A stretch of 64,000 nucleotides of DNA from an uncultured delta proteobacterium (GCA_963840855.1 CAWJBB010000030.1:225755-289754); one strand, 5' to 3'. Shown: positions 6,039 to 51,091, numbered from the stretch's first letter. Numbers and translations: made by a program. Notes: generated by a model from the letters alone, not told the origin.

Positions 6039-9000
6039 TCACTGCGCTAGCGGCAGCTCGCTGGGTGGGTGAGAAGGGGTGAAGTTGATGTCCCGTATTT
6101 TTACTTTGTTGAGATTTTCTCTGGCGGGAAGAAGTGGAGCCGTGGCCGCTTTTTTATCCGAATGCTCCATGATCGCCGGCGCCAGCAATTTTAGAATCGT
6201 CACCGGCAGCGCGCTGGTAAATTTATAATTTTCAGCCTCCCGGCCCTGGACGTAGGCCGTGACGACACCGTAGTAACTCTCGTCGATGTAAAAAACGAAA
6301 GTCGCCGTACGGTTGGTGGCGCGGGAAGAAGTCACACCGCCTTGCCGGTTGAAGGTTTGAATGCGGTTGTCGCCGGAGCCGGTTTTTCCGCCCACCGTAA
6401 TGAGCTTGCCGTCGGGATATTTAAATGCCCCATGCAAGCGCCGCGCGGTGCCCTGCGCGACGACGTCGGCCATCGCTTTGCGCGCCGCGCGCGCCACCAC
6501 CGGGTTCAGTACGACTTCGCCTTTAGGCGGATTGCGCTCCAAAACCGTTTCATAGGGCGTGCCGGGGGCGAAGTGGATCTTGGTCAATGCCGTTCCAGGG
6601 CGGCGCACGCCGTCGTTTACCAGAATGCCGACCAACTCGGCCAGCGCCACCGGCCGGTCGCCGGAGCTGCCAATGGAGCTGGCATAGGACGGCACCATAG
6701 TCTTAAAAGGAAAACCCAGTTTCTGCCAGTAAGGCGTGAGGCGGGCGAAGGCGTCTCTTTCTATCTTTATGCGCAAGCGCAAGTCCTGGGCTTTGCGGTG
6801 GCGCGCATTAAGCAGCCAGGACGAGCCCTCGAGCCCCGCCTTGCGGCTGCCGGCGAGAAGATCGTCCCATGACAGATTTGGATTCTTGCGGTATTCCTGC
6901 GCGCACCAGAGGTCCAAAGGGTGAATGGAGAGCAGATAGGCGAAATCCATCGCGGTGAGTCTGGGGTTCTGGTAGGCTCGAAACAATCTCGCCACGTCCA
7001 CGGACGCGGCCTGCGCGCCGTGTTTCTTGAGCCATGCCGCCAGCGCTTGTTCATCGGCGCCGATGCGCCAGGCGAAGAAAAGTATCGCCAGCCGCCGCTC
7101 CGCGTTGCCTCTAGTTCCCACCAGCCGGGCGATGATCTTTTCCTCGCTCTGTCCTTTATAGTTGGGGTAAGAGCGCCGCAGTACGCTGCGCGATTCCTCA
7201 TCGGCGATCTCCACGAGCATGCGGCGGCGCTCGGGATGATCCGGCTTGGCGAGCACGTCGTCGGCGTTATAGGCCAGCCGCGCGCGGTGGTAGCCTATGA
7301 TATCGCGCATGAGACGGATGAACACGAGATTGATTGAGCTCTGAAAGGCCTCGCGCAGCGACAGGATTTTGCCGTTATCATCGGGATCGAAATTGGCGAA
7401 GTCATGCAGCCCGCCGCCGGTGAAAAACATTTCCCCGGGACTGGCTGAATAACGCCGCTCCATGGAGCTTTGCAGAATCGCCTCGAGGGTGATTTGGGGG
7501 TCCGTCTGAAGCGTTTCAATGACCCAGCGGGTGAGCGGATCACGCGCCTCCTTCGCCGCCTGCTCGAGGTCTGGTCCGGCCAAGGAGGAAAACTCCTTGT
7601 GCAGTTCGGCGATGATTTCCAGATAGTGCGTCAACGTGCGCAGCTTGGCGGTGCTGCCGAGCTCGAGCTTGACGCTCTTATTGAAATCGAAGGGCGTGGC
7701 GAGATTGTCCGCTTGCACCCGGACCATGTTGCCTTGCGGCGTGGGTTCCACGAGCAGGAATGAATAAACGATCTTTTTCGGGTCGGCGTAGTTGAGCAGG
7801 TATTCGCCGATCAATCCTTTGGCTTCAACGACCTTGCGGTCTCCCAGGCTGTTGAGAAAATCCGTCACTTTCTGCTGTAGCGGCACGTCGATGGTGCTTT
7901 GCAATTCCAAGTGCAGGCGGTTGAGGTCATAGACGTTGTTAATGCCCAGATACTCCATCGTCGTAATGCGCACGGCGTTGGCGGCTTTGTTCTTGTAAGA
8001 CGAAGGCTGCGGCGTAACCGGCCCCGTGCCCAGATATTCGATAGGGGTGTGCTCAATGGCGTCGGCCAGCTGCTTTTCGATGATGCCTTCGCGCGCCATC
8101 AGCTTGGCGAACTGGCGGACTTTTTCCTCGAGGCCCGGCCGGTCATCGACCAGAAATGCCGACGGCGAGCGCACCGAGACCAGCAGCGTTAGCACTTGCT
8201 TATAGGCGTCCACTTTCGCAGCCGTAATACCCGGCTCCTTGATGGCCTTCAGGGCGTCTTCCAACTCGGTTCCGAACCAGGCGTAAAGCCCCTCGCCGAG
8301 GCCGTGGATCTCGCCGTAACCGGGCGCGGCGGCCAGCGGCACGGCGTTGAAATAGTCCACAATGATGCGCTCGCGCCAAGCGCGCGTGTTCTTGCCGGCG
8401 CGGTAGGCTTTAAGGCTGGCGCCGACGAGCTGGCGCAATTTTTCCAACGGCGTGTCGGTGCGGCCGTGGGGAGAGTGGCGGAATTTTTCCAATTGCACGG
8501 CGAGGGTGCTACCGCCTTGCACCGGCACCGGCAAATAAAATTTGGCGCCAATGTAATAAAACAGGGCCTTCACCGTACGGTCCCACTCGATTACCGGATT
8601 CTGCCAGGACGCCGCGGGGTGGTCGAGATCGCGGTTTTCCAAAAACAGCAGGGTCTTGACCAACAGCGGCGGGATGTCGTTGATCCCTTTGAACAGGAAT
8701 TCCGATTGGGCGTATTGAAACAGCGGAGCGCCCTTGGTGCCCGCGCCGCTGTTGCTGGCATTGACGCCCTGGACGACGATGCCGGTTACTCGCGGCTCGG
8801 TGTAGGGCGGCGCGATGCCATGGCCGATGAGATTGGCGAGAGTCTCTGATTGCCGCGCCTGCTGCGTGACTTGGTAGCCCTGTTTCTCAAGACGCGACTG
8901 AAAGTCGGATAGCTTCGAATAGCCTCTGCGGTCATCAAAGGGGGCGGAGCGCGGAAACGCTATGCTCGGACTGCGGCCGTCGGCCAATTCAAATGATAGC

Positions 9001-37865: not shown

Positions 37866-38348
37866 ATGTGGACAGTGCTTAGAAGACTCTCGCTAGGGGT
37901 AAGCCTCATTATTCTATCCTCAGCTATGCTGCTGGTTTCCGATTGGCACCAACGCAGGTCCATTGGCGGCAAGATCCCGCGCGTGGCAATCGTCCAACAC
38001 TCGGCTAGTGCTGCGTTAGACGAAGGCGTTCTGGGAGTGCTTGACAGTCTGAAAGCAAACGGCCTGATCGACGGACAAAACATCAGAATAAACCGGTTCA
38101 ACGCTGACGCTGCTATCGTGTCGCGGGACAAACTAACGACTCTGATGGTGACCCATTCGATGCAACAAGCGGCTAGTTTAGGCGGCCGTCTGGTGATGAT
38201 GCATCGAGGCCGGGTTATTCATGATCTGTGTGGCGCGTAAAAGCGCCGCGCGCGGGTCGATGATTTGCTGGCGCGCTTCGAGGAAGTCAGGCGCCAGGAG
38301 CAGCTCGATGAGACCGCCGCGGAGATGCTGCGGAGGGCATATATCTAA
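37866..38348 (+). pseudogene. Deletion-derived fusion of an ABC SBP N-terminus and an ABC ATPase C-terminus
   Basis: RVAIVQHS..GLIDGQNIRINRFNA joins directly to TTLMVTHSMQQA..RLVMMHRG. An internal TAA at 38238 is followed by KRRARVDDLLARF..*. Confidence 0.75.
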
Positions 38349-38621: not shown

Positions 38622-38975
38622 ATGGAATTGGAGATCAAAAATCAGTCGGACCAAATCACCCGCCTAGCCCTTCGAGGGCGGCTGGACACCACTGGAGTGG
38701 GGGAGGTCGAATTGAAGTTTACCAGTCACACGGTCCCAAGGGCAAAGCCGCTCCTTTTGGACATGTCGGAAATCACTTTTGTTTCCTCCCTCGGCCTGCG
38801 GATGCTTTTGACCGTAGCCAAAGCGCTAGACCAGCGTGGGGTCAATATGGTCCTCCTGAGTCCGCAGCCGGCTGTGCGTGAGGTCCTCAGCCTTTCCGGA
38901 TTCGATCAGCTGATGCCCGTGTACAATGACGAGAGGACAGCGTTGGCATTTCTTACAGGGATTGAAGCTCGATAA
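38622..38975 (+). CDS. STAS domain anti-sigma factor antagonist
   Basis: LRGRLD, LDMSEITFVSSLGLRML and VREVLSLSGFD; GGAGG RBS. Confidence 0.92.
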   Translation: MELEIKNQSDQITRLALRGRLDTTGVGEVELKFTSHTVPRAKPLLLDMSEITFVSSLGLRMLLTVAKALDQRGVNMVLLSPQPAVREVLSLSGFDQLMPVYNDERTALAFLTGIEAR

Positions 38976-39265
38976 GATCCCGTAGCCCTCCCTGGCTTTA
39001 CATTTCTCGCAGCCTTTCCCGTTTGCCTATTCGGTACTCGCTCGGGTCTCGACGGCGGGTGCATATGGTTGCTCTTTCTGTTCGGTTTCTGGCATCGAAC
39101 CCGCTGCCAATAGCGGTTGGTCTGTTCTGCTATGTTCGCTGGCCGAGAAGGGGTTTCATCTGATCACGCCTTAAGCCTGCGGGAAAACCGGACTTGAAAT
39201 TCCTTACCAGTTGATATTACATCGGGTCACGCCATAACCTCTGCACAATCCAAGAGCTTGGAATC

Positions 39266-40975
39266 GTGGCGAAGAAGCCCGCCAATTTGATTTACGGCCT
39301 CGACGAGAGTCCTCCTCTAGGAACGACCCTTCTGCTCGGCTTCCAACATATTCTCGCCTTGTCCGGTGCGTTCGTCTATCCTGTGATCCTTCTGCAGGAG
39401 ACCGGAATGCTCCCCGAGCAGGCGGAACGTATGATTCCTGCGTCGATGATCGTCATGGGGATCGCGACGATTCTGCAAACGCTCCGGTATGGCCGTATAG
39501 GATCCGGTTATCTCTGTCCCGAGCAGGTGGGCCCCGCATATGTCCCGGTCTCTATTCTGGCGGTCAAGACGGGCGGCCTGCCGCTGTTGGCGGGAATGAC
39601 TCTGGTGAGCGGTCTCTTCGGCGTAGTGCTCTCTCATCTCATGGGCCGTCTCCGTCCCTTTTTTCCCGCCGAGGTTACCGGCACGATCGTGATGATGGTC
39701 GGTTTCGCGCTTATTCCCGTAGCGGTCTTCAGGTTTTTAGGAATTGCAGAGTCACGCGCGGTCATTGATCCGCTCTCAGTGAGGATCGCTTCCATCACTT
39801 TATTCGTCATGGTCGGGGTGACCGTGTGGGGCTCATCGACGCTGCGGTTGTATGGCGTTTTGATCGGAATCGGTGCTGGCTCGATCTGGGCTTATGTGAG
39901 TGGTCTAGTGACCGATGAACACTTACGCCGTTTAGACCGGGCCTCTCTTCTCGCTTTGCCGTCTTTTCCGGGAGAGGGCTGGTCCTTTAGCGGCGCGTTG
40001 CTGGTTCCCTTTCTGGTGACGGCGTTGGCTTCATCGCTGAAGGCCGTGGGTGACTTGACGACATGTCAGAAAGTGAACGATGCTGAGTGGAAAAGGCCGG
40101 ATATGAAGTCTATCAGTGGCGGCATCCTTGCGGATGCTTGCGGTGTGATGTTGTCTGGGGGAGTAGGAACGATGGGACAGTCGACCTCCAGTGCCAACGT
40201 CGGTCTCTCCATTGCGAGCGGTGCGACTAGCCGCCGGATTGGGTTTGCTTGCGGCGCAATTCTGATGGTTTTGGCCTTCGTACCTAAGCTGGCGGTATTG
40301 TTTGCCATCATGCCGAGTCCGGTGATCGGAGCTTTTCTGTTTTTCGTGGTTTGCTTCATGATCGTTGCCGGAGTTCAGATTCTCACCTCGCGCATGATGG
40401 ATGCGCGCAAGACATTCGTGGTCGGCGTCTCAGTCATTTTGGGGTTAAGCGTGGATATGCTGCCCGGCGCCTACCAGAGCGTCCCTGGTATGTTCCAGTC
40501 TGCTTTTACCTCTTCGCTTTCGGTCTCTACGATCTCGGCACTGCTTCTGAATCTGTTGTTTCGTATCGGAATTGCGCAGCGTGCGAAGCTGCAAATCGAC
40601 CCACACTCGGATTCTTCTGACCAAATATTTTTATTCATGGAGAAGCAGGGAGGAGCCTGGGGTGCGCGCAAGGAAGTGATCGATCGCGCCAAGTCCGCGA
40701 TGAACGAATTTATCGAAGCGGCAACGGCGCTGGAGCTGAGCACCGGCAAGATCGACGCTGAAGTCAGCTTTGATGAGTTCAATCTCGATGTCGATATGCG
40801 CTACGACGGCGAGCCTATGGAGTTTCCTATAGAACGGCCTACGGACACGGACCTGTTGGAGGATGAGAGAGCGGTCGCAAAGCTGGCGGGTTTTCTGATA
40901 AGGAATTACGTTGACCGGGTCAAGTCCGACCGAATCACTGGTCGCTGCCGCGTTCAATTCCATCTCGAGCACTGA
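39266..40975 (+). CDS. NCS2 (xanthine/uracil) permease fused to a C-terminal degenerate RsbW-like HATPase domain
   Basis: YGLDE.PP, GFQH, FFPAEVTG, VGDL, NVG..SGATSR and MPSPVIG, plus a soluble tail of about 130 aa. Confidence 0.85.
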   Translation: MAKKPANLIYGLDESPPLGTTLLLGFQHILALSGAFVYPVILLQETGMLPEQAERMIPASMIVMGIATILQTLRYGRIGSGYLCPEQVGPAYVPVSILAVKTGGLPLLAGMTLVSGLFGVVLSHLMGRLRPFFPAEVTGTIVMMVGFALIPVAVFRFLGIAESRAVIDPLSVRIASITLFVMVGVTVWGSSTLRLYGVLIGIGAGSIWAYVSGLVTDEHLRRLDRASLLALPSFPGEGWSFSGALLVPFLVTALASSLKAVGDLTTCQKVNDAEWKRPDMKSISGGILADACGVMLSGGVGTMGQSTSSANVGLSIASGATSRRIGFACGAILMVLAFVPKLAVLFAIMPSPVIGAFLFFVVCFMIVAGVQILTSRMMDARKTFVVGVSVILGLSVDMLPGAYQSVPGMFQSAFTSSLSVSTISALLLNLLFRIGIAQRAKLQIDPHSDSSDQIFLFMEKQGGAWGARKEVIDRAKSAMNEFIEAATALELSTGKIDAEVSFDEFNLDVDMRYDGEPMEFPIERPTDTDLLEDERAVAKLAGFLIRNYVDRVKSDRITGRCRVQFHLEH

Positions 40976-41091
40976 GCCACGAAAGCATGCTGACTCCGAC
41001 CGAGTTGTCCCCTTGTGGTGTGAGCGGATATTCGAAATCTTCCACGAGAAAATGTCATCCGGTATAAGTGATCGTTCCAATAGGAATCACT

Positions 41092-42801
41092 ATGGCAAAG
41101 AAGCCGGCCAGCCTGATTTATGGTGTCGATGATAAACCCCCGTTGACCGCGTCGCTGCTGTTGGGGCTCCAGCATGTCTTCGTGATGAAGTCCGGTTGGG
41201 TGATGGTCGTGATAATCGTCACCACCATCGGCGGTACTCAGGAAGAAGTCGCCAACGTGCTCCGGATGTCGATGATTACGTCCGGAATCGCGACCATTCT
41301 GCAATCTTTACCTAACAGTCCGTTCGGTTCTGGCTATTTTTGCCCCATCAGCGGCGGACCTGCATACATCTCCGCGTCAATTTTGGCAGGCAAGGTTGGC
41401 GGTTTGAGATCAGTCTTCGCCATGACGGTGATCTCAGGCCTCTTCGAGGGGCTGCTCGCTCGGGTCTTGCCGCGATTACGGCCGCTTTTCCCTCCCGAAG
41501 TCACCGGACTGGTGGTGACGATGGTAGGGATAGAGATTGTGGCCTTGGGTTGTCCCAGGTTTCTCGGATTTCAGGACGGCGGCGCGGGTCCGCAAGGAAC
41601 CGCCACTGCTGTTGCGATAGTGACGTTGGCCGCGATGATCGGACCGACCGTATGGGGTAAAGGGAACCTCAAGTTATATCCTGTACTGATCGGTCTTGTG
41701 GTCGGTTACTTGTTCGCTTATTTTTTTGGTGTCTTTGAAAGGGAACGGTTGCAGGAGATGCTTGCCGCGCCAATGATCAGCCTGCCACGGAAGGTTCACA
41801 CGGGCTGGTCGTTTGATCTCGCTCTTCTTCCCGCATTCCTCATTGCCAGCCTGGCTTCGACCTTGAAAAGTGTGGGCGACTTGACCCTGTGCCAGAAAAT
41901 CAACGACGCCGATTGGAAACGGACCGACATGCAGTCGGTCAGTGGAGGGATTTTCGCCGGCGCGATCGGTACCGGACTATCGGGTTTGCTTGGCGGGATC
42001 GGCCAATCCACCTTCTCCAGCAACGTCGGTCTTTCCCTCGCCACCGGGGCCACCAGCCGCTCGATCGCCATTCCTTGCGGCATCCTGATGATCCTGCTGG
42101 CTTTTTTACCCAAGCTCGCGGCCTTTTTTGCCGTGATGCCCGACCCCGTGATGGGCGCGATCATCATTTACGCGGCTTGCTATATGATTCTTGCCGGCAT
42201 TCAGGTGATCACGTCGCGCATGCTCGACGCTCGGCGAATTTTCGTCGTCGGCATCGCTCTGATCTTCGGCCTGAGCGTCGACATGGTTCCCGGGCTATAC
42301 AGCAATGTGCCCGAATTGATTCAGCCTCTGTTTTCGTCGTCTCTCGCGATTTCCACTGTCCTGGTGGTTTTTCTGAACCTGCTTTTTCGGATCGGCGTTA
42401 CCAAGCGCCAGGTTCTGGAGTTGACGCCCGGTGTCGATGGTTCGCAGAAAATCTTTGAATTCATGGAGACCCAGGGGAGCGTTTGGGGAGCGCGCCGTGA
42501 GGTAATCCAGCGCGCGACGGCGGCTCTCAATGAGTTCGTCGAGTCCGCAGCCGCCCTGGATCTTGTGAAAGGAAAGGCCCAAGCCGAGGTCAGTTTCGAC
42601 GAATTCAATCTCGATATGGATATTCGCTACGATGGCGAGCTGATGGAGTTTCCCAGCCGGCGACCGACCGAAGACGCGCTTCTCGCCGATGACAAGGCCG
42701 TCGCCAGCCTCTCAGGCTTTCTAATTCGCCAGTACGCCGACAGGGTCAAAGCTGAAACGGCCAATGGCCGGTGTCGGATCCAAATGCATTTCGATCATTG
42801 A
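41092..42801 (+). CDS. Second NCS2 permease with a C-terminal degenerate RsbW-like domain
   Basis: Paralogue of 39266 (both 569 aa): GLQH, FPPEVTG, NVGLSLATGATSR and SFDEFNLD..YDG. Confidence 0.85.
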   Translation: MAKKPASLIYGVDDKPPLTASLLLGLQHVFVMKSGWVMVVIIVTTIGGTQEEVANVLRMSMITSGIATILQSLPNSPFGSGYFCPISGGPAYISASILAGKVGGLRSVFAMTVISGLFEGLLARVLPRLRPLFPPEVTGLVVTMVGIEIVALGCPRFLGFQDGGAGPQGTATAVAIVTLAAMIGPTVWGKGNLKLYPVLIGLVVGYLFAYFFGVFERERLQEMLAAPMISLPRKVHTGWSFDLALLPAFLIASLASTLKSVGDLTLCQKINDADWKRTDMQSVSGGIFAGAIGTGLSGLLGGIGQSTFSSNVGLSLATGATSRSIAIPCGILMILLAFLPKLAAFFAVMPDPVMGAIIIYAACYMILAGIQVITSRMLDARRIFVVGIALIFGLSVDMVPGLYSNVPELIQPLFSSSLAISTVLVVFLNLLFRIGVTKRQVLELTPGVDGSQKIFEFMETQGSVWGARREVIQRATAALNEFVESAAALDLVKGKAQAEVSFDEFNLDMDIRYDGELMEFPSRRPTEDALLADDKAVASLSGFLIRQYADRVKAETANGRCRIQMHFDH

Positions 42802-42867
42802 AAAACTAGCCAAACATATTTGAATTGTTTGGTTGGGTTTTGCCTTCTAGAATCGGAAAACGATGAC

Positions 42868-42942
42868 TCGCGCAAAGACGCAAAGCACGCCAAGGTCGGA
42901 GAAAATTAATCTTTCTTGGCGCTCTTGGCGCCTTGGCGGGAG
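42868..42942. repeat. Intergenic palindromic repeat (GCAAAGACGCAAAG / CTTGGCG family)
   Basis: cgcaaagacgcaaagcacgccaag ... cttggcgctcttggcgccttggcg; a similar copy lies at 59291. Confidence 0.7.
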
Positions 42943-42984
42943 AAAATTTCTTGAAGTCATTCTGTCAAACATCCCAAATGGAAG

Positions 42985-44381
42985 TGTCAGTGAACAATTA
43001 AAAATGCACTCGTTTAAACTTTAAAAGTGCACTATTTGTCTTCTTTGGGTTTTCATCATCATCCATTGAGCCAGGGAGGACAAGATGGGCAAGCATCTGC
43101 GCAAACTGTTTTCGGCAGACCAAGTAAAGGAAGTTTTTCAGAGGTATCTATCACGGCAGATCGGAGTCGATCAGGCGTCGGCAATACTCAAGATTCGAAG
43201 ACGTCAGTTTTTCAAATTGTTGAAGGTCTACCGGGAGAGGCCAGAGAGCTTTTCCTTGGATTATACCCGGAAGACACCTCCTCGGAAGATCGATGCCAAA
43301 GCAGAAGCGAAGATAACCCAAGAACTGAAAAAAGAGGCCGAGATCATTGGGGACAAGCGCAATCCGGTGCGGTTCTACAACTACAGTTACTTGAAAGAGA
43401 TCCTGGAAAAGAAGCACAAAGTCCATGTGTCTTTGCCAACCATCATCCGTCGGGCGAAAAAAATGGGTATTACGAACAAAGGCCTTCTCGAAAAGTCCAT
43501 GATCGGGAGGTCCTGACCAACTATGTGGGAGAACTTCTCCAGCACGATACCTCCTACCATCTGTGGTCCCCGCTGGCACAAACCAAGTGGTATCTCATCA
43601 CGACTATCGACGATCACAGCCGCAGGATTTTGCACGGGGATCTGTGGGAGAAGGAGACCACCTGGACGCATATCGTGGCTCAGAGGTCCGTGCTGACCCA
43701 GTTTGGCTGTCCGTTGAAGTACTATGTCGATAATCATTCGATCTTCCGCTACGTGGAGAAAAGAGACAGTGTGTGGAAGAAATTTGAGACCACCGAAGAA
43801 CAAGCCGTTGTTCAGTGGAAGGAGGTTCTCAAGGAGTTAAGCATCGAGGTGGTTTATGCCTTGAGTCCTGCCGCCAAGGGAAAAGTGGAGAGGCCCTACC
43901 AATGGCTGCAGGATCACCTGGTCAGGACCTGTGTGCGGGAGGAAATCACCAAGCTCGATCAAGCTCGCCAGCTCCTCTATGAAGAGATTCATCGGTACAA
44001 TTACCAACGGGTTCACTCCACCACCGGGGAAATCCCTGTTCGTCGTTATGAAAAAGCCCTTGGGGAGAATCGAAGCGTGTTTCGCAGGTTTGAAATTCCC
44101 CGACCTTATCAGACCCTCGATGATATTTTCTGTTACCGTTTCAAAAGGACGGTGGATGCTTATCGCAAGGTCTCCTGGAACGCTTTGCAGTTCAGCGTGG
44201 CGGGTGTTCCTATTCGCGAAGAGGTGGAACTGCGGATCAGCTTTAACCTTAAAACCCGGTTAGCCCTCATTCGATTCTGGTATCAGGAGAAGCTCGTGGG
44301 AGAGCAACGAGTCAAAGCCGAAGATCTCAAGAAAGTGCACTTTTAAACTTTAAACAGTGCACTTTTAAAAGTTTCCCAACA
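42985..44381 (+). mobile_element. IS481/IS1202-family insertion sequence, 1397 bp, 16-bp target duplication
   Basis: TGT...ACA ends with imperfect inverted repeats containing repeated TAAAAGTGCACT. ACATCCCAAATGGAAG flanks it at 42969-42984 and 44382-44397. Confidence 0.9.
43085..44346 (+). pseudogene. DDE transposase, split by a -1 frameshift at an A7 run (about 43457-43463)
   Basis: An HTH N-terminus (43085 frame) and the catalytic motifs QHDTS, IDDHSR, YVDNHS and KGKVER (43027 frame). Confidence 0.85.
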
Positions 44382-44507
44382 ACATCCCAAATGGAAGAAT
44401 CTACACGACCCTTTGGTTTTTTTCGATGACTCGCGGCGCGTTTTTTGAGACATCATCGGATTGCGAAACGTGCGCCGTGCGCCGGAAAGAATGAATAGGA
44501 GAAACTT

Positions 44508-46841
44508 GTGACGATACGGACGCAAACGCTATTGATGGTGACCCTGTTGCTGGTCGCCGCGGTCCTCGCTACAGCCGGTGTTCTTGGCTGGAGCTCACGG
44601 CAGGCGGTGCTGGCCGAAACCGAGGCCCAGGGGCTCGTTATCGCGCGCTTATTGGAACGCAGCGCGGCGTTCGGCGCCCGGGTCATGAGCGATGTTGAGG
44701 CCGCCATCGGCGAGCAGATGGTCATCGAGGCCACGATGGCGGCACATCTCGTGGCCTTGGGGGAGATGGCGGGAGTCAACCCGCAGGAAATCAACCGGCG
44801 GCTTAAACAAATCGCCGACGATACGGTGCTGGACGAAATCTGGATTACCGACGAGAAAGGTCACGCCTACTTAAGAAATATCTCGGAAATCGACTTCACG
44901 TTTAGTCCGGACCCCAAGCAGCAATCCCAAGCCCACGTATTCTGGCCCCTGCTCACAGGAAAAACCAAAAGCGTTGTCCAGGACTCGCGACAGCGCGAAG
45001 TCGATACACAAGTTTTCAAGTACGTCGGAGTCACGGGGGTGGATAAGCCGCGCATCGTCCAGGTAGGTTACAACGCCGCCTTTCTTCAACAACTGCGGCA
45101 GCGCATGGGGCTGACCCGTCTGATCAATCAGCTGGTTTCCGAAGGAAGCGTCATCGCTATCCGCGTCCTCGACAAGAACATGATCACCGTGGACTATGCT
45201 GAGAGGCTTCGGGACGATAAGCTGCCCGAGCCTACGGAGAACGATCTGGCAAACCTTCGCAAGTTGATAAGCGAAGGGCGAACCGAAAGCCATTTGGAAG
45301 GGTCGCTCCTCAAAGTCGCGGCTCCGATCGGCGAAGAGGGGGGAGAATTAAAAGGCGGGGCGATTCTGGTGACTCTCCCTACCGATCGAATGCAGACCGC
45401 CATTCGCAGCGAGACTCGGTTGGCAACAACTGTTAGCGGCTTTGTGCTTTTGTTCGGATCGGTCATTGCTATTTTTGGCGCCAAGACCATCTCCAAGCCG
45501 ATTGCCGACCTCACCGAAATGACCCGCCGGATCGCTGGCGGTGATTTCACGCAACGGATCGATATCCGAGCGAAGAACGAAATTGGCGCCCTTGCGTTCT
45601 CATTCAACGAGATGACGCGGCGCTTGAACGAATCCATCGAACATCTCAAACAAACCACCGCGGCCAAGGAACGGATCGAAAGCGAGCTGCAGATCGCCCA
45701 CGAAATCCAGATGAGCATGGTACCAAAGATTTTTCCGCCGTTTCCGGAGCGCAGCGAGTTTGATATTTTCGCCACCCTGGTGCCGGCCAAAGAGGTTGGG
45801 GGAGATCTCTACGATTTCTTCTTCATCGATAACGATCACCTATGCTTTGCCGTCGGCGATGTCTCCGGTAAAGGAGTCCCCGCCTCGCTCTTTATGGCCG
45901 TCACCAAGACTCTGTTCCGAGCTACCGCCGGCAACGGTGGCACTCCCGGTGAAATCCTCGCGCGCTTGAACGCCGAGATCTGTCGCGATAATGAGTCTTG
46001 CATGTTCGTGACCTTTTTTTGCGGCATCTTGAATACGCGCACCGGTCAGGTCGATTATAGTAACGGTGGCCACAACCTGCCCTATTACCTTCACCACGAC
46101 GGCATCAGTCCTTTGGAAAACGCCGGCGGCAGAGCTCTGGGGCTTGTGGAGCAAAGTCCCTACGCATCGAAGCGGATGGTTCTCGGGCCTGGGGAGGGCC
46201 TGCTGCTTTACAGCGATGGGGTGACCGAGGCGATGGACTCGAGCGAGGCGCTTTATTCCGATCAGCGGCTCGCGCGGTTTCTGGCGAGCAATCGCCGCTC
46301 TTCTCCGCGCCAAATCATCGGCGATTTGGTCAGCGACGTAAGGCGGTTTGCCGGCGGAGCTCCGCAGTCGGATGATATCACCGTTCTGGCGCTGCACTAT
46401 CTTGGCACCACGGAAAACATGACGGAACGCGTAGAGGTCAAGCTTCTTAACAAGCTTTCAGAGCTCGACCGGTTTAATCAGAAGCTGACGGAATTCGGCG
46501 GGCAACACGGTCTACCCGACGAGGTCATGCACGATCTCAACCTCGCCCTGGAAGAAATTCTCACCAACATCATCTCCTATGGTAACATCGACAGCCGGGA
46601 ACACGAGATTAGAGTGCGCCTGAGCGTGCAACCAGGAGAGATAACAGCCGAAGTGGAAGACGATGGGCAACCCTTCAACCCCCTTGACGTGCCTGAGCCT
46701 GACACAACGAAATCGTTGGAGGACAGGACGATCGGTGGACTTGGAATCCATCTCGTGCGCAAAATCGTGGATGGCCTTGAGTACAAGCGGCAAGGAGAGA
46801 GAAATCTGCTGACCATTAAAAAGAAGACGCAGAAATCTTAG
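44508..46841 (+). CDS. Membrane sensor: TM, Cache-like, TM, HAMP, SpoIIE (PP2C) phosphatase and RsbW-type HATPase kinase
   Basis: HAMP NEIGALAFSFNEM; PP2C EVGGDLYD, GDVSGKG, YSDGVTEA and QSDDIT; kinase LEEILTNIISYG, EDDGQPFNP and GGLGIHLVR. Confidence 0.93.
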   Translation: MTIRTQTLLMVTLLLVAAVLATAGVLGWSSRQAVLAETEAQGLVIARLLERSAAFGARVMSDVEAAIGEQMVIEATMAAHLVALGEMAGVNPQEINRRLKQIADDTVLDEIWITDEKGHAYLRNISEIDFTFSPDPKQQSQAHVFWPLLTGKTKSVVQDSRQREVDTQVFKYVGVTGVDKPRIVQVGYNAAFLQQLRQRMGLTRLINQLVSEGSVIAIRVLDKNMITVDYAERLRDDKLPEPTENDLANLRKLISEGRTESHLEGSLLKVAAPIGEEGGELKGGAILVTLPTDRMQTAIRSETRLATTVSGFVLLFGSVIAIFGAKTISKPIADLTEMTRRIAGGDFTQRIDIRAKNEIGALAFSFNEMTRRLNESIEHLKQTTAAKERIESELQIAHEIQMSMVPKIFPPFPERSEFDIFATLVPAKEVGGDLYDFFFIDNDHLCFAVGDVSGKGVPASLFMAVTKTLFRATAGNGGTPGEILARLNAEICRDNESCMFVTFFCGILNTRTGQVDYSNGGHNLPYYLHHDGISPLENAGGRALGLVEQSPYASKRMVLGPGEGLLLYSDGVTEAMDSSEALYSDQRLARFLASNRRSSPRQIIGDLVSDVRRFAGGAPQSDDITVLALHYLGTTENMTERVEVKLLNKLSELDRFNQKLTEFGGQHGLPDEVMHDLNLALEEILTNIISYGNIDSREHEIRVRLSVQPGEITAEVEDDGQPFNPLDVPEPDTTKSLEDRTIGGLGIHLVRKIVDGLEYKRQGERNLLTIKKKTQKS

Positions 46842-46844
46842 ATC

Positions 46845-47192
46845 ATGGACATTAGCGAAGATAGAAAAGCCGACGCGGTCGTATTGGCATTATCAGGCAA
46901 ACTCGATGCCACGACGGCAAAAGCCTTCGAGAATAAAATCCTTACTGTGATCGACTCGGGCGCCCAGCGACTCGTCGTCGATCTTGCCCAGCTGGATTAC
47001 GTCAGCAGCTCGGGCCTGCGCGTCTTTCTGCTTGCCGCCAAGCGACTGCAGGCGACAAACGGGAAGATTACCTTGTGTGGGCTGCAAGATCAGATTCGGC
47101 CGGTGTTCGACTTGGCCGGCTTCTCATCCATCATTTCCATTTACGGCTCGCGCGACGACGCAATCAAAGCCCTATCTACTCTGGCACCATAG
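46845..47192 (+). CDS. STAS domain anti-sigma factor antagonist
   Basis: LSGKLDA, LDYVSSSGLRVFL and VFDLAGF. Confidence 0.93.
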   Translation: MDISEDRKADAVVLALSGKLDATTAKAFENKILTVIDSGAQRLVVDLAQLDYVSSSGLRVFLLAAKRLQATNGKITLCGLQDQIRPVFDLAGFSSIISIYGSRDDAIKALSTLAP

Positions 47193-47391
47193 CGGTGAGC
47201 GGGTTTTCCTTACGACCACCGACCTTCTCTCGCCCTCCTCTCACGCGTGAGTGAATCGTCTACCCAAGCTGCGGGAAAGCGCTTGTTTCGCTGTGGCGGT
47301 TGGAATAGATTGCCCGATAGTTGGCAAACAACGTCGCGCATACTGGGACTTTCGGGGTTAAACCGTTGGACGATAAACTAAGGAGACTGCC

Positions 47392-48417
47392 ATGATCGAC
47401 ATGCATGCCCATTGGAGGCCCGCCGAGCTGATCGACGCCCTGCGCGCCCGCACCAAGGAACCGCGCATCGTGCGCAATCAGGACGGCGTAGAAGTGCTGA
47501 AGAGCCGGATCGGCGAGGAGCCGGTGTCCAAGGCGTTTGATGACGTGGGATTCCATCTCGCAAGGATGGATCGCCAGGGCGTGAACACCAGCGTCCTGTC
47601 GCTGCTCGGTGCGTTCTGCTGGATCGAGTCGCAGCCGGTCGAGGTTTCGCTGCCGCTGTGCAGGTTGGTCAACGACGCACTGTCGGGGCTTTGCCAGAAA
47701 TACGACGGGCGCTTCAGTGCGTTTGCCGCGCTGCCGCTCGTGGATATGTCCGCCGCCGCCGCCGAGTTTGAGCGCGCGCTGGCGCTGCCGGGCGTGGTCG
47801 GCGCGCAGGTGCCGGGAAACGGGTTTCTCACCAAGAAGGACGCCGAGAACATGCGCCCGCTGTTGGAGGTGGCGAACCGCCACCGTGCGATCGTGTTCAT
47901 TCACCACGGTCCGCGCCCTGGCGACGCGTTCCCCAAGGTATCCGGCGACACCGACAACGCGCGCCGCCGCAACGGCACGCTCGACATGCAGGCGAGCCTC
48001 TCCTCGGTGATGGTGACGCTGTGCCTCACCGACTACCTCGCGCCTTACCCCGATGCGACGGTCCTGGTTCACAATCTCGGTGGAAATATTCCCTACGAGA
48101 TCGAGCGCATGGATCACCGCAGCCTGCTGGATACAGCGAAAGAGGAACTGCCGTCGTCGCGCTTTCGCCGTGCGAAGGTGTACGTGGATTGCAACTCGTT
48201 CGGCCCCGGCGCGATCGAGGCCGCGGTGCGCTTGTACGGCGCCGAGCGCATCGTGTGCGGCACCGACGGAACCGAGTTTGGCTGCGAGTGGACCAGCAAG
48301 GCGCTTGCGGAAGCGCAGATCGGCGAGGATGCGCGCGCGAAGATCTTGCACCGCAATGCCACAGCGATGATGTCGCGCCTCGCAAAGGTCGCGCAGCGCG
48401 AAACCGTCGCCGCGTAA
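47392..48417 (+). CDS. Amidohydrolase_2 family protein
   Basis: IDMHAH, MDRQGV, VFIHHG, HNLGG and GTDG. Confidence 0.88.
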   Translation: MIDMHAHWRPAELIDALRARTKEPRIVRNQDGVEVLKSRIGEEPVSKAFDDVGFHLARMDRQGVNTSVLSLLGAFCWIESQPVEVSLPLCRLVNDALSGLCQKYDGRFSAFAALPLVDMSAAAAEFERALALPGVVGAQVPGNGFLTKKDAENMRPLLEVANRHRAIVFIHHGPRPGDAFPKVSGDTDNARRRNGTLDMQASLSSVMVTLCLTDYLAPYPDATVLVHNLGGNIPYEIERMDHRSLLDTAKEELPSSRFRRAKVYVDCNSFGPGAIEAAVRLYGAERIVCGTDGTEFGCEWTSKALAEAQIGEDARAKILHRNATAMMSRLAKVAQRETVAA

Positions 48418-48511
48418 TCCTCGCGCGAGCGGAGGACGGGGTTGAATCTTAAAGACCGCCCACTGCCAGTGGGGGAGCGAGCAGCCGGGATTTCCGGCGG
48501 TATCGACGAAC

Positions 48512-49477
48512 CTAACCGCGCCAGTTGTAGTACAAACTGGCGTAATTTGTATTGTAACTACCGCCTTGCTTGACGCCGCGCGGAAAAGTTGACGCTGCCG
48601 GAAAATCGCCGCCACAATAAATCTCGAGCAGGTTTCCAGAGGGATCGCGAAAGTACATCAAACCTTTCTTGCCGTCGCGCGTCCACGGACCCGGCGTTAC
48701 CACGCCGTGGGATTTGAGCCACTCGATCATTCGCAGGAAATTCTCCGTGTCCGCGTAAAACGCGTAATGCGGATATTCGACATCGCGCCCGGTCGGCACG
48801 CCCCCGCGCGTCGACAAGCCGACGACGGCGCCGGCGAGCCGAACCTCAGTGAACGTCTCTGGATCGCTCGTTGCGATCGCGTCGCCGCCCATCACCTCGA
48901 CGAAGAAGCGCTTGGACTGTTCGATGTCGCGCACCGGCATGCTGAGGTGGCCGAAGGAATGAATGCGCGGCCGTTCGGCGGCATTTTCCACCGCACCGTT
49001 CCACTGAACGTACTGGAGCGCTTCCAACGGCAGCGATCTCCCGCCCTGGCGCGGTCCCAGTGCCAGCTCGCGAATGTCTTCGTAGCCGCTGTCGCAGTAA
49101 AGCTCGAATAGATTACCCGAAGGATCGCGAAAATAGAGTAGCGCAGTTTTGTAGTTTCGCGTCCAACCGTGCTGAGGCACCCGGCATGCTTCAAACCAGC
49201 GGCGGGCCAGCGCAAAGTTCTTTCCGTCGACATTGAGCCCGTAATGCGGGTACTCCACCGTTGGCCCCGTCCAACCGCCGGATTGCTGAGAGATGCCGAA
49301 GATAATGTCGGCGATGCGTACCTCAGCGAATCCGGGAATGTCATGGATGAGCTCCCCACCCAATACCTGGGTATAAAATCGCTTTGACTCTTCCACGTCG
49401 CGGCACGGTAGACTGATATGATGCAAGTAAGCGAAGCGGGGTCGTTGATGCTGCGCAGTTCCGGCTCTGCTCTCCAT
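48512..49477 (-). CDS. VOC/glyoxalase family protein with two repeated domains
   Basis: HHISLPCRD..YPHYG..YFRDPSGNLFEL recurs as GHLSMPVRD..YPHYA..YFRDPSGNLLEI. Confidence 0.88.
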   Translation of the reverse strand: MESRAGTAQHQRPRFAYLHHISLPCRDVEESKRFYTQVLGGELIHDIPGFAEVRIADIIFGISQQSGGWTGPTVEYPHYGLNVDGKNFALARRWFEACRVPQHGWTRNYKTALLYFRDPSGNLFELYCDSGYEDIRELALGPRQGGRSLPLEALQYVQWNGAVENAAERPRIHSFGHLSMPVRDIEQSKRFFVEVMGGDAIATSDPETFTEVRLAGAVVGLSTRGGVPTGRDVEYPHYAFYADTENFLRMIEWLKSHGVVTPGPWTRDGKKGLMYFRDPSGNLLEIYCGGDFPAASTFPRGVKQGGSYNTNYASLYYNWRG

Positions 49478-50308: not shown

Positions 50309-51091
50309 TTAATGCTCGATGGCTGACGCGATTCGCTCTAATGTTCCCTCGAGCCGTTTGTCGGTTTTCAACCGCACTTCCATTCGCGCAACACTCCGGC
50401 TCACGCAGGTCGGATCCACTCCGAGCATCTCCGCTAGTCCCTTGACCGACAGCTCCGTACAACTACTGCCCACGTGACACACGAGCTCGCGCGCCAGCAC
50501 CCGCTGCAGATCTTTTCCCGCACCGATCACCTCTCTTCTCGTCATTCCGAGCACCTTGCAGACAGCCTCAAGAAGCGCGTCCGCCTTGATCTTAATCCGT
50601 ACCCTCTCCTCCTCTCCCGCCTTGCTTTTGACCTCCTCCGCAAACTGTCGATCCCCAAGAAATCTCCCATCGAGCACGTCGTAATACTCTTCCTTGTGCC
50701 CCTCGTCCATTCCTTCTGATACAAATTTCCGATAAAGCTTTTTGGCTTCCCTCACGGTTCGGCTGAACTGCCTCAACACCTCAGTGGTATCCAACCACGG
50801 CTGCTTGCTACCATCGGTTATGTAGGATCGGTAACTGCTCCAAACATATTCTCCCGGGTCCTTCACCACTTTCGCTCGCATCGGGTTCAAATGCAGATAC
50901 CGACTGAGCTCTAATAGATAACTCTCCTTATCGCACAGGATCGCTTTATAGCGACCCTGAAACAGATGCCCCACAAGTTTGTGCCGCCAGTTGAAATACT
51001 GCGTGTATCCGCTGCCAAACCTCTGCATCAGCCGTGATAACGGAATCTCGCCCGCCTCCAAAAGCAGATGGACGTGATTTTCCATCAGCAC
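50309..51091 (-). pseudogene. 5'-truncated Y1/RAYT transposase with a C-terminal HTH
   Basis: LMENHVHLL (HUH), GHLFQGRYKA, RYLHLNP and WSSY; the N-terminal YHV..RG segment is missing. Confidence 0.85.

Follow-up and report, generated by a model that had tools for sequence, protein, structure and literature searches.

A candidate partner-switching module with NCS2-fold permeases, each bearing an RsbW-derived pseudokinase tail, as its proposed target

Partner switching is a textbook mechanism for the control of sigma factors. HsbR of Pseudomonas, a bifunctional PP2C/RsbW-kinase regulator with the STAS protein HsbA as its partner, has a non-sigma output. Small proteins also dock on transporters according to their modification state, as GlnK does on AmtB, unphosphorylated EIIA-Glc on LacY and MalK, SbtB on SbtA, and MlaB on MlaF. 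Of these, MlaB has the STAS fold and binds the ATPase of a transporter (PMC5016091). The SypE-SypA pair of Vibrio fischeri consists of a PP2C/RsbW-kinase regulator and a STAS partner with an output that is not necessarily a sigma factor (PMC10120452). The SLC26/SulP and SLC23/NCS2 carriers share a gate/core fold family of 7+7 transmembrane (TM) helices, according to two papers (PMC6497670, PMC5539350), and the part that the STAS domain plays on SLC26/SulP carriers "has not been fully explored" in the words of a 2021 review (PMC8256260). Here we describe a gene cluster in 64,000 nucleotides of DNA from an uncultured delta proteobacterium (GCA_963840855.1, CAWJBB010000030.1:225755–289754; the whole stretch is called the window, and positions are counted from its first nucleotide), in which two NCS2-fold permeases with RsbW-like C-terminal tails are accompanied by two STAS proteins and a phosphatase/kinase sensor. 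We propose with moderate confidence that the cluster is a partner-switching module that has a transporter, and not a sigma factor, as its target, and that the unphosphorylated form of one STAS protein, STAS-B, docks on the pseudokinase tail and regulates transport.

The genes of the cluster all lie on the plus strand, from 38622 to 47192:

38622–38975, plus strand: STAS-A, a single-domain STAS protein of 117 amino acids (Pfam STAS, 69.9 bits; TIGR00377, 66.8 bits)
39266–40558, plus strand: NCS2/SLC23-fold membrane domain, residues 1–431, of permease 1 (569 amino acids; PF00860)
40559–40975, plus strand: C-terminal tail of permease 1, residues 432–569, a pseudokinase domain of RsbW/SpoIIAB fold (by fold and hhalign)
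41092–42801, plus strand: permease 2, a paralogue with the architecture of permease 1 (PF00860; tail at ~42385–42801)
44508–46841, plus strand: membrane sensor of 777 amino acids with an extracytoplasmic domain, HAMP, SpoIIE-type PP2C, and RsbW-type kinase (Pfam)
46845–47192, plus strand: STAS-B, a single-domain STAS protein of 115 amino acids (Pfam STAS, 76.9 bits; TIGR00377, 83.2 bits)

This arrangement, co-oriented and with an insertion sequence (IS) between permease 2 and the sensor, agrees with the initial annotation of the window, and each gene has Pfam support at its coordinates. STAS-A has an alternative, longer start at a GTG (38553). Permease 2 probably begins at an ATG (41092) that matches the permease 1 start in alignment; counted from a GTG at 41068, it would have 577 amino acids. 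The two permeases are 54% identical over 569 amino acids without a gap, tails included, and their tails are 61% identical. The absence of a sigma factor from the cluster, also remarked in that annotation, extends to the 64-kb window, which has no Sigma70_r2 match; the nearest one on the contig lies ~36 kb before the window start. No further switch component was seen among the flanking genes, which encode methionine-salvage enzymes, a Phd-type antitoxin, an amidohydrolase, a glyoxalase-fold protein, YceI, and a Y1 transposase. In databases, the relatives of the permease bear the label Candidatus Binatia.

The tail, ~138 amino acids at the C-terminus of each permease, had been likened by eye to the RsbW-type kinase domain of the sensor and was expected to have a GHKL/HATPase fold. 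Pfam gave no family match to the tails at E≤0.1, PF13581 included. A model built by AlphaFold from an alignment of 56 homologous tail sequences (A1) has a mean predicted local distance difference test (pLDDT) value of 95.1 and a predicted template modelling score of 0.88. Foldseek placed SpoIIAB, RsbW, and UsfX first among PDB structures, with SpoIIAB at the top (1til_E; E 5e-6, template modelling score 0.71). In VIA-align, the tail matched UsfX with a Z of 14.4 (root mean square deviation 2.1 Å, 116 residues), SpoIIAB with 13.5, RsbW with 13.3, and the RsbW domain of Rv1364c with 13.2; the CA domains of histidine kinases reached 8.7 at most. Profile-profile comparison by hhalign of the 56 tails with 15 RsbW-type domains, taken from the linked loci described below, established the HATPase_c_2 homology end to end (Prob 94.8%, E 5e-8, 131 columns) and reproduced all three of the by-eye matches, with an offset of one residue at the start of the third. 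When tail and sensor kinase domain were compared pairwise by BLASTP, E was 6e-5. Other sequence searches were less productive. A single tail had no match in the PDB at E≤10, and the profile of 56 tails drew spurious coiled-coil matches there (e.g., spike S2 constructs) and no GHKL protein; our own RsbW-type hidden Markov model matched 18 of 92 tail open reading frames (ORFs) at E≤10, the best at 5.6e-5. The kinship of the tail with RsbW is thus mostly missed by sequence methods alone and is brought out by fold and by profile-profile comparison. Two clusters in the ESM Atlas serve as leads only: that of rank 2 has 15% of its members in PF13581, and that of rank 15 has 19% in PF00860.

The motifs by which RsbW-type kinases bind ATP are lost from the tails. 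The N-box Asn and the GGLG box, reported as missing from the two tails of the window, are indeed missing there and across the 56 homologues. At the position of the N-box residue Asn47, Asn occurs in none of the 56; the G1 residue Asp78 is replaced by Tyr in 51 and by Trp in four; and Gly is found at the G2 positions 103, 104, and 106 in two, three, and one of the tails, respectively. Other positions are kept, namely G1 Gly80 (Gly in 55 of 56), Glu43 (Glu in 44, Gln in 11), and Asp115 (Asp in 51). The kinase domain of the sensor, by comparison, has E43, N47, D78, G80, G103, G104, and G106, all of which are invariant in the alignment of RsbW-type domains (A3). Since the tails have lost the ATP-binding motifs while the sensor kinase retains them, we take it as settled, as far as computation reaches, that the tail is a kinase-dead descendant of an RsbW/SpoIIAB-type anti-sigma kinase. 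The motifs best kept among the tails themselves are WGxR, FDEFNLD, Tyr84-x-Gly86, Asp121, and a C-terminal His (residues 36–39, 73–79, 84–86, 121, and 140 of tail P0001; window coordinates 40658–40669, 40769–40789, 40802–40810, 40913–40915, and 40970–40972).

In the sensor, Pfam finds HAMP at residues 325–375 (60.4 bits), SpoIIE at 442–630 (174.6 bits), and HATPase_c_2 at 649–772 (94.0 bits); judged by its motifs, the protein combines a PP2C phosphatase with an intact RsbW-type kinase. The description of its extracytoplasmic part as Cache-like did not hold up, residues 1–331 having no credible Pfam match. A sensor in an Armatimonadota locus (L063) carries dCache_2 and is 35% identical to that of the window over residues 288–772; the extracytoplasmic parts of the two do not align.

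STAS-A and STAS-B are 30% identical, and both retain, as the initial annotation had it, the phosphoacceptor region, in the form Ser-x-Gly-Leu-Arg. The 40 linked STAS proteins compared all have D21, S55, and R59. The Ser55 position corresponds to the residue phosphorylated in SpoIIAA and RsbV, and Ser55 of STAS-B is the presumed phosphoacceptor. Small STAS ORFs linked to permeases in other loci are nearer to STAS-B in 50 of 52 cases and to STAS-A in two, and the STAS protein encoded directly upstream of the permease in two loci (L010, L011) is 91% identical to STAS-B. For this reason STAS-B appears to be the family-wide partner and STAS-A a local, lineage-specific extra.

A complex of the tail (A1) and STAS-B (alignment A4) was predicted with an interaction prediction score from aligned errors (ipSAE) of 0.81 in three of three runs, against 0.00 for the best of three controls. 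In calibration, 58 of 80 solved complexes attained the ipSAE mark, as did 2 of 110 mismatched pairs. Contacts agreed among the runs to at least 94%, and the pLDDT of the partners was at least 88. The interaction suggested in the initial annotation is therefore predicted at high confidence relative to null controls, and Ser55 is central to it. The contacts of lowest error made by Ser55, at the center of the predicted interface, are with tail residues 52, 55, 56, and 108–115, at positions that once held the catalytic Glu, formed part of the N-box, or belonged to the ATP lid. If Ser55 were phosphorylated, the phosphate would, in the model, lie at the heart of this contact surface. On the STAS side the interface is more conserved than the rest of the protein (0.66 as compared to 0.49), and the core interface residues of the tail (E52, E55, L111, G113, and L115) are 75–84% conserved.

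The tail is widespread. A HMMER search of 1.84 billion cluster representatives returned 587 proteins at E≤1e-3, of which 294 also passed E≤1e-10. Of the 150 matches listed, 45 are at least 500 amino acids long, each with a tail match ending no more than 16 residues from the C-terminus, and the remainder are shorter and mostly fragments. PF00860 was present in all 120 matches listed by a word-indexed search. A pattern-seeded scan of one genome per species confirmed the tail in at least 317 species genomes. From 80 species-level records of these relatives, 80 loci were kept; as the scan was seeded with a 12-sequence subset of the tail alignment and the pattern [SRA]FDEFNLD, they are biased toward tails that keep the FDEFNLD motif. 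By record title, 20 of the 80 are archaeal (Methanothrix, Methanoregula, Methanophagales, and others). The bacterial loci come from Binatia, Syntrophales/Smithella, Sporomusa, Vicinamibacteria, Verrucomicrobiota, Ignavibacteria, Armatimonadota, Dehalococcoidales, and Alphaproteobacteria.

The tail-bearing permeases proved to be linked to switch genes. All ORFs of the 80 loci were translated and searched with profiles seeded from the STAS, PP2C, and kinase domains of the window. Within 4 kb of the permease, a small STAS gene occurs in 38 of 80 loci and a PP2C gene in 42, co-oriented with the permease in 36 and 40 of them, respectively; 46 loci have one or the other and 34 have both. When restricted to the 40 loci having at least 4 kb on both sides, the corresponding numbers are STAS 20, PP2C 20, either 23, and both 17. 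The density of these genes falls off with distance from the permease:

0–2 kb: STAS 10.9 per 100 kb, PP2C 14.5 per 100 kb
2–4 kb: STAS 5.7 per 100 kb, PP2C 2.6 per 100 kb
4–6 kb: STAS 3.1 per 100 kb, PP2C 0 per 100 kb
6–8 kb: STAS 1.8 per 100 kb, PP2C 2.4 per 100 kb
8–10 kb: STAS 0 per 100 kb, PP2C 0 per 100 kb

The background of STAS genes in the window's genome is 11 matches in 7.1 Mb. All-against-all clustering of neighbors yielded only two widely conserved clusters, PP2C/kinase (51 loci) and STAS (43 loci), the next being an ABC ATPase (10 loci). Gene order varies. By Pfam, it is STAS, 5TM-5TMR_LYT-SpoIIE, HATPase_c_2, and permease in Methanothrix (L036); 5TMR_LYT-SpoIIE, STAS, and permease in Smithella (L056); and permease, dCache-HAMP-SpoIIE-HATPase_c_2, and STAS in Armatimonadota (L063). 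In many loci (e.g., L056, L061, and L073) only a few bases separate the end of the STAS frame from the permease frame.

As a control, paralogues were compared within one order, using an even sample of 61 genomes in which STAS or PP2C genes were sought within 5.5 kb of NCS2 genes. Such a gene was found beside 9 of 11 tail-bearing NCS2 genes and beside none of 28 tail-less ones (open frames of 427–493 amino acids). These are given as counts without a statistical test, because the genomes are kin and at least 5 of the 11 tail-bearing loci are shared with the first survey. Left out were one locus with a long frame lacking an A1-type tail (L137), two matches of 538 and 549 amino acids, and eight short ones. 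The NCS2 genes of the window's relatives were tried as a tail-less control and rejected, as 16 of 17 regions carried a divergent tail of ~150 amino acids and only one (L089) was tail-less. In five genomes from which loci had been drawn, canonical short NCS2 genes occurred in Sporomusa only, and this set was dropped as a control. The adjacency of STAS and SpoIIE-type PP2C genes is far above what distance or tail-less paralogues would lead one to expect, as anticipated in the initial annotation.

Ten of the 20 archaeal loci have both STAS and PP2C genes. To our knowledge, archaea have no sigma-70 factors, and PF04542 was found in 10 of 14 control genomes, all 10 of them bacterial. In archaea the switch therefore needs a target other than a sigma factor, and the permease tail is the only RsbW-like candidate present.

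The whereabouts of the kinase differ among the 42 PP2C-linked loci. In seven it is fused to the phosphatase, as in the window; in 14 it is a separate RsbW-sized gene nearby; in three it is farther away in the locus; and in 18 no canonical HATPase_c_2 domain was found in the locus. These 18 loci could be explained if the tail were itself catalytically active as a non-canonical STAS kinase, in effect an RsbW joined to the protein it targets, that completes modules of PP2C, STAS, and permease lacking a separate kinase. The retention of the Glu43-aligned residue and likewise of Gly86 and Asp121 would fit such an activity. The changes at the N-box, G1, and G2 speak against it, as does the intact kinase domain already present in the window's sensor. 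In addition, all five "kinase-less" genomes tested encode, elsewhere, an open frame of 142–168 amino acids with a HATPase_c_2 match, so that a kinase encoded in trans is available. We consider a catalytically active tail very improbable.

In the mechanism we favor, the extracytoplasmic domain would act through HAMP to set the balance between the PP2C and kinase activities of the sensor. The HATPase_c_2 kinase would phosphorylate STAS-B at Ser55 and the PP2C domain would remove the phosphate, such that this balance would determine the phosphorylation state of STAS-B. The pseudokinase tail is envisaged to have kept the ancestral binding of unphosphorylated STAS while no longer binding ATP; only unphosphorylated STAS-B would then dock on the permease tails, and docking would alter transport activity, in either direction. 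We infer binding, its dependence on phosphorylation, the effect on transport, and a signal that runs from the sensor to the permease; what the analysis shows is which domains are present, that the ATP motifs are gone, that the genes are linked, and that an interface is predicted at high confidence.

Signal could also flow the other way, as the initial annotation had allowed. The permease would then be a transceptor, with a tail that holds or releases STAS according to transport or conformational state and so reports substrate into the switch, the output being a STAS-binding protein elsewhere. The same predicted interface would serve this purpose, and a second conserved surface of the tail could couple it to the membrane domain. 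Other STAS proteins and kinases are at hand as well, since the window's genome has nine STAS matches besides STAS-A and STAS-B, RsbW-type kinases occur elsewhere in the related genomes tested, and multi-STAS loci exist (the window, L010, and L019). The permease is nonetheless favored as the output, because the phosphatases carry sensory domains of their own (dCache, 5TM-5TMR_LYT, and HAMP), because no other neighbor is conserved that could be a second output protein, and because half of the archaeal loci have STAS and PP2C without a sigma factor to receive the signal. The transceptor is in our estimation unlikely.

Several observations weigh against regulation of the permease by docked STAS-B. 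The score of the predicted complex may be a memory of the solved SpoIIAB-SpoIIAA and RsbW-RsbV complexes and as such would speak for likeness and not for actual binding by this tail; the prediction was, moreover, fed with our own alignments. The tail interface is no more conserved than the rest of the tail (mean top-residue frequency 0.44 versus 0.49, permutation p 0.84), and the best-kept motifs of the tail all lie outside of it. The latter point to a second function of the tail, for which contact with the membrane domain, dimerization, and a ligand site are possibilities. As for linkage, STAS and PP2C genes were detected with our own iterated whole-ORF profiles (a Pfam check of four ORFs labelled PP2C found SpoIIE in all four); among the 40 full-flank loci, 17 lack both genes within 4 kb; the closest relative, L009, yielded no PP2C gene over 20 kb; and the 18 PP2C-linked loci lacking a canonical kinase also belong here. 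In the window's own genome, the IS between permease 2 and the sensor may have disturbed expression.

The conservation pattern, the 17 loci, and the possibly remembered complexes would all be accommodated by linkage without direct contact, in which the switch controls expression or some other protein and the tail serves in dimerization, stability, or ligand binding of the permease. This account has difficulty with the specific likeness of the tail to anti-sigma kinases, whose defining partner is STAS, with the contrast between tail-bearing and tail-less paralogues in one order, with the STAS and permease frames that lie only a few bases apart, and with the conservation of the five core interface residues. 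We regard it as slightly less probable than the transceptor and also unlikely. Among the alternatives that might still apply, the order is thus transceptor, mere co-regulation, and active non-canonical kinase.

A broader statement, which we put forward tentatively and consider a little short of an even chance, is that widespread SLC23-fold carriers in many bacterial phyla and in methanogenic and related archaea are regulated post-translationally by a phosphorylation-switched STAS protein acting on an RsbW-derived pseudokinase receptor. The distribution in the window's own taxonomic family is patchy, with the tail in 4 of 24 genomes (the unpublished G015 among them). The window's genome has only the two tail copies, and no further NCS2 gene was found in it. 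A second, divergent tail of ~150 amino acids occurs on NCS2 permeases in a sister family of the window's order (L090–L105). By hhalign it resembles the main tail family (Prob 89%, E 2e-6) and RsbW-type domains (Prob 55%, E 1e-4), and a STAS gene follows downstream, after a few bases in L090 and after ~450 bp in L094. The NCS2 protein of L137 has a different long C-terminal extension, with a weak HATPase_c_2 match (7e-5). Given these divergent tails, the group of pseudokinase-tailed NCS2 proteins is broader than the 587 clusters. Eight cluster representatives (P0151, P0157, P0180, P0189, P0216, P0223, P0229, and P0240) are exactly 112 amino acids long and start at a Met equivalent to tail residue 29; they may be free-standing tails or gene-calling artifacts on broken permease genes.

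In the closest relative, L009, a STAS-A-like gene is followed by two tail-bearing permeases and a STAS-B-like gene, and no kinase gene was found in its 20 kb. L009 also encodes a protein of 431 amino acids that consists of an N-terminal STAS domain and ~300 residues matching no family; a similar protein of 412 amino acids occurs in L053 and L054.

The membrane domains of the permeases belong to the Xan_ur_permease family (PF00860; 186.7 bits over residues 20–398 for permease 1 and 202.1 bits for permease 2, cut-off 27) and score above the cut-off of 40 in NF037981 NCS2_1 (62.3 and 58.2 bits). They align to the structures of UapA, SVCT1, and UraA, and the AlphaFold2 model of full-length permease 1 has a pLDDT of 86.2. 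Neither a STAS nor a Sulfate_transp domain was found in the permeases by Pfam. In UapA, E356 (the TM8 Glu) and Q408 (the TM10 Gln/Glu) are substrate-site residues of characterized NCS2 members. Permease 1 has Lys259 and Ala310, respectively, at these positions. Among 73 full-length tail-bearing homologues the TM8 position is Lys in 72, and the TM10 position is Ser in 62, Ala in seven, and Gly in two. These permeases thus lack specificity residues of the xanthine/uracil type. Their scores in TIGR03173 pbuX (251 and 254 bits) are below the cut-off of 414, and those in UraA, RutG, and other nucleobase equivalog models are far under the cut-offs. The database name of the relatives, "xanthine permease XanP," is doubtful on both of these grounds, and it is probably wrong for hundreds of so-named proteins without the canonical substrate-site residues. 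From its residues, the permease probably transports something other than a canonical nucleobase.

A threonine ammonia-lyase gene lies 77–180 bp from the permease, on the same strand, in four loci (L012:2012–4156, L029:713–2854, L031:79–2361, and L033:10499–11812). The enzymes are of the single-ACT type, and the two checked score 470–498 bits in TIGR01127. In three of these loci (L012, L029, and L031) the enzyme is fused to an N-terminal STAS domain, which in L012 is accompanied by an N-terminal NHLP/NHase-alpha-like segment; the enzyme of L033 is plain. A STAS-tagged enzyme beside a carrier tagged with a STAS receptor might, speculatively, form a tethered enzyme-transporter pair. The conserved TM8 Lys and the lyase neighbors hint at an amino acid or 2-oxo acid, and not a nucleobase, as substrate.

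Between permease 2 and the sensor gene lie two mobile or repeated elements:

42802–42972, no strand assigned: dispersed intergenic repeat resembling repetitive extragenic palindromes (REP) or miniature inverted-repeat transposable elements, 3' of permease 2, with partial copies genome-wide
42985–44380, plus strand: ISNCY-type IS of 1396 bp

The repeat has ~50 partial copies of 74–94% identity, spread over many of the genome's contigs and in part arranged as inverted pairs. The IS has terminal inverted repeats of ~55 bp and is flanked by an intact 17-bp direct repeat (42968–42984 and 44381–44397). Its transposase ORF (43027–44346) matches rve/rve_3 weakly in Pfam and NCBIfam ISNCY_2 with 140 bits, under the cut-off of 250. 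The transposase frame is split into an HTH-like part (43085–43516) and the rve part (43027–44346), which reflects programmed frameshifting or else a defect. The genome has two further copies, one 100% identical (C52) and one 90% identical (C61), so the insertion looks recent. Without the IS, the spacer between permease 2 and the sensor would be ~300 bp.

Other features of the surroundings were noted. Upstream of STAS-A, the ORF at 37866–38240 is chimeric: its N-terminal part is like the beginning of a TrpX/ABC_sub_bind substrate-binding protein, and its C-terminal part is like the final portion of an ABC ATPase. A deletion probably collapsed an ABC transporter operon here and left this ORF as its scar. 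In L009 an ABC ATPase gene (6839–7681) lies directly upstream of the STAS-A-like gene. Downstream of the cluster, G+C rises to 62–65% in 47000–49000, across the amidohydrolase gene (47392–48417), as compared to ~55% in the cluster, and this stretch may be a compositional island. The Y1 transposase gene (50309–51091, minus strand) is IS200-like and possibly REP-associated.

If the proposed module is real, partner switching would gain a direct transporter output, also in organisms without sigma factors, and, by way of a dead anti-sigma kinase domain, would come to govern solute uptake directly and post-translationally. It would explain the STAS, PP2C, and RsbW genes of archaea. The STAS domain in cis on SLC26 and the STAS protein in trans here would be two solutions to one regulatory problem on one transporter fold, making the latter a natural experiment for the SLC26 question, with the same fold and with STAS supplied in trans and switchable. 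Some lineages may use the receptor to tether the STAS-fused threonine ammonia-lyase to the carrier as a transport metabolon.

The families of all components are known, and their arrangement is without description in the literature searched. In full-text literature we found neither an account of RsbW-like tails on NCS2 permeases nor one of STAS regulating such a permease (the NAT/NCS2-hound paper PMC6308229 and the STAS review PMC8256260 included; subscription journals and supplementary files were outside the scope of the search). New in this analysis are the survey of gene linkage, the comparison with tail-less paralogues, the argument from archaea, and the predicted complex.

The tail is nearest to RsbW, SpoIIAB, and UsfX, the binding partners of RsbV, SpoIIAA, and RsfA/RsfB, with which it has a common fold (Z 13.2–14.4) and profile homology. 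As in the solved complexes of anti-sigma kinases with STAS proteins, the predicted interface sets a phosphorylatable Ser against the former active site. UsfX is reported not to phosphorylate its antagonists, and would by analogy be a precedent for an RsbW-type protein that is no kinase and still binds STAS. Unlike the free anti-sigma kinases of ~140 amino acids, the tail is fused to the C-terminus of a 14-TM carrier, and unlike them it has lost the Asn of the N-box, the Asp of G1, and the glycines of G2 and does not match PF13581. No sigma factor is involved, and the module occurs also in archaea. In a classical partner switch, the RsbW component alternates between STAS and its target, whereas here the RsbW-like component is fused to the presumed target, and there is thus perhaps no "switch" between two partners.

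The sensor is like SypE and HsbR in having PP2C and an RsbW-type kinase in one protein that would act on a single-domain STAS protein. It differs from them in being a membrane sensor with HAMP and no receiver domain, and the proposed target of its STAS partner is a pseudokinase domain inside a transporter. In common with GlnK-AmtB, EIIA-Glc, SbtB-SbtA, and MlaB-MlaF, a small soluble protein would tune transport in one state of covalent modification; those systems use other protein families and surfaces, and none has an RsbW-derived receptor or a Ser-phosphorylated STAS. The permeases are counterparts of the SLC26/SulP carriers and not members of that group, having neither of its two domains. 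Both have a cytoplasmic C-terminal regulatory module from the partner-switching toolkit. SLC26/SulP carriers hold the STAS half in cis, whereas these permeases hold the RsbW half in cis and, as proposed, recruit STAS in trans, so that the contact, unlike that of the cis STAS, would be switchable by phosphorylation. The module works like a partner switch and like the STAS arrangement of SLC26 turned inside out, and is a member of neither.

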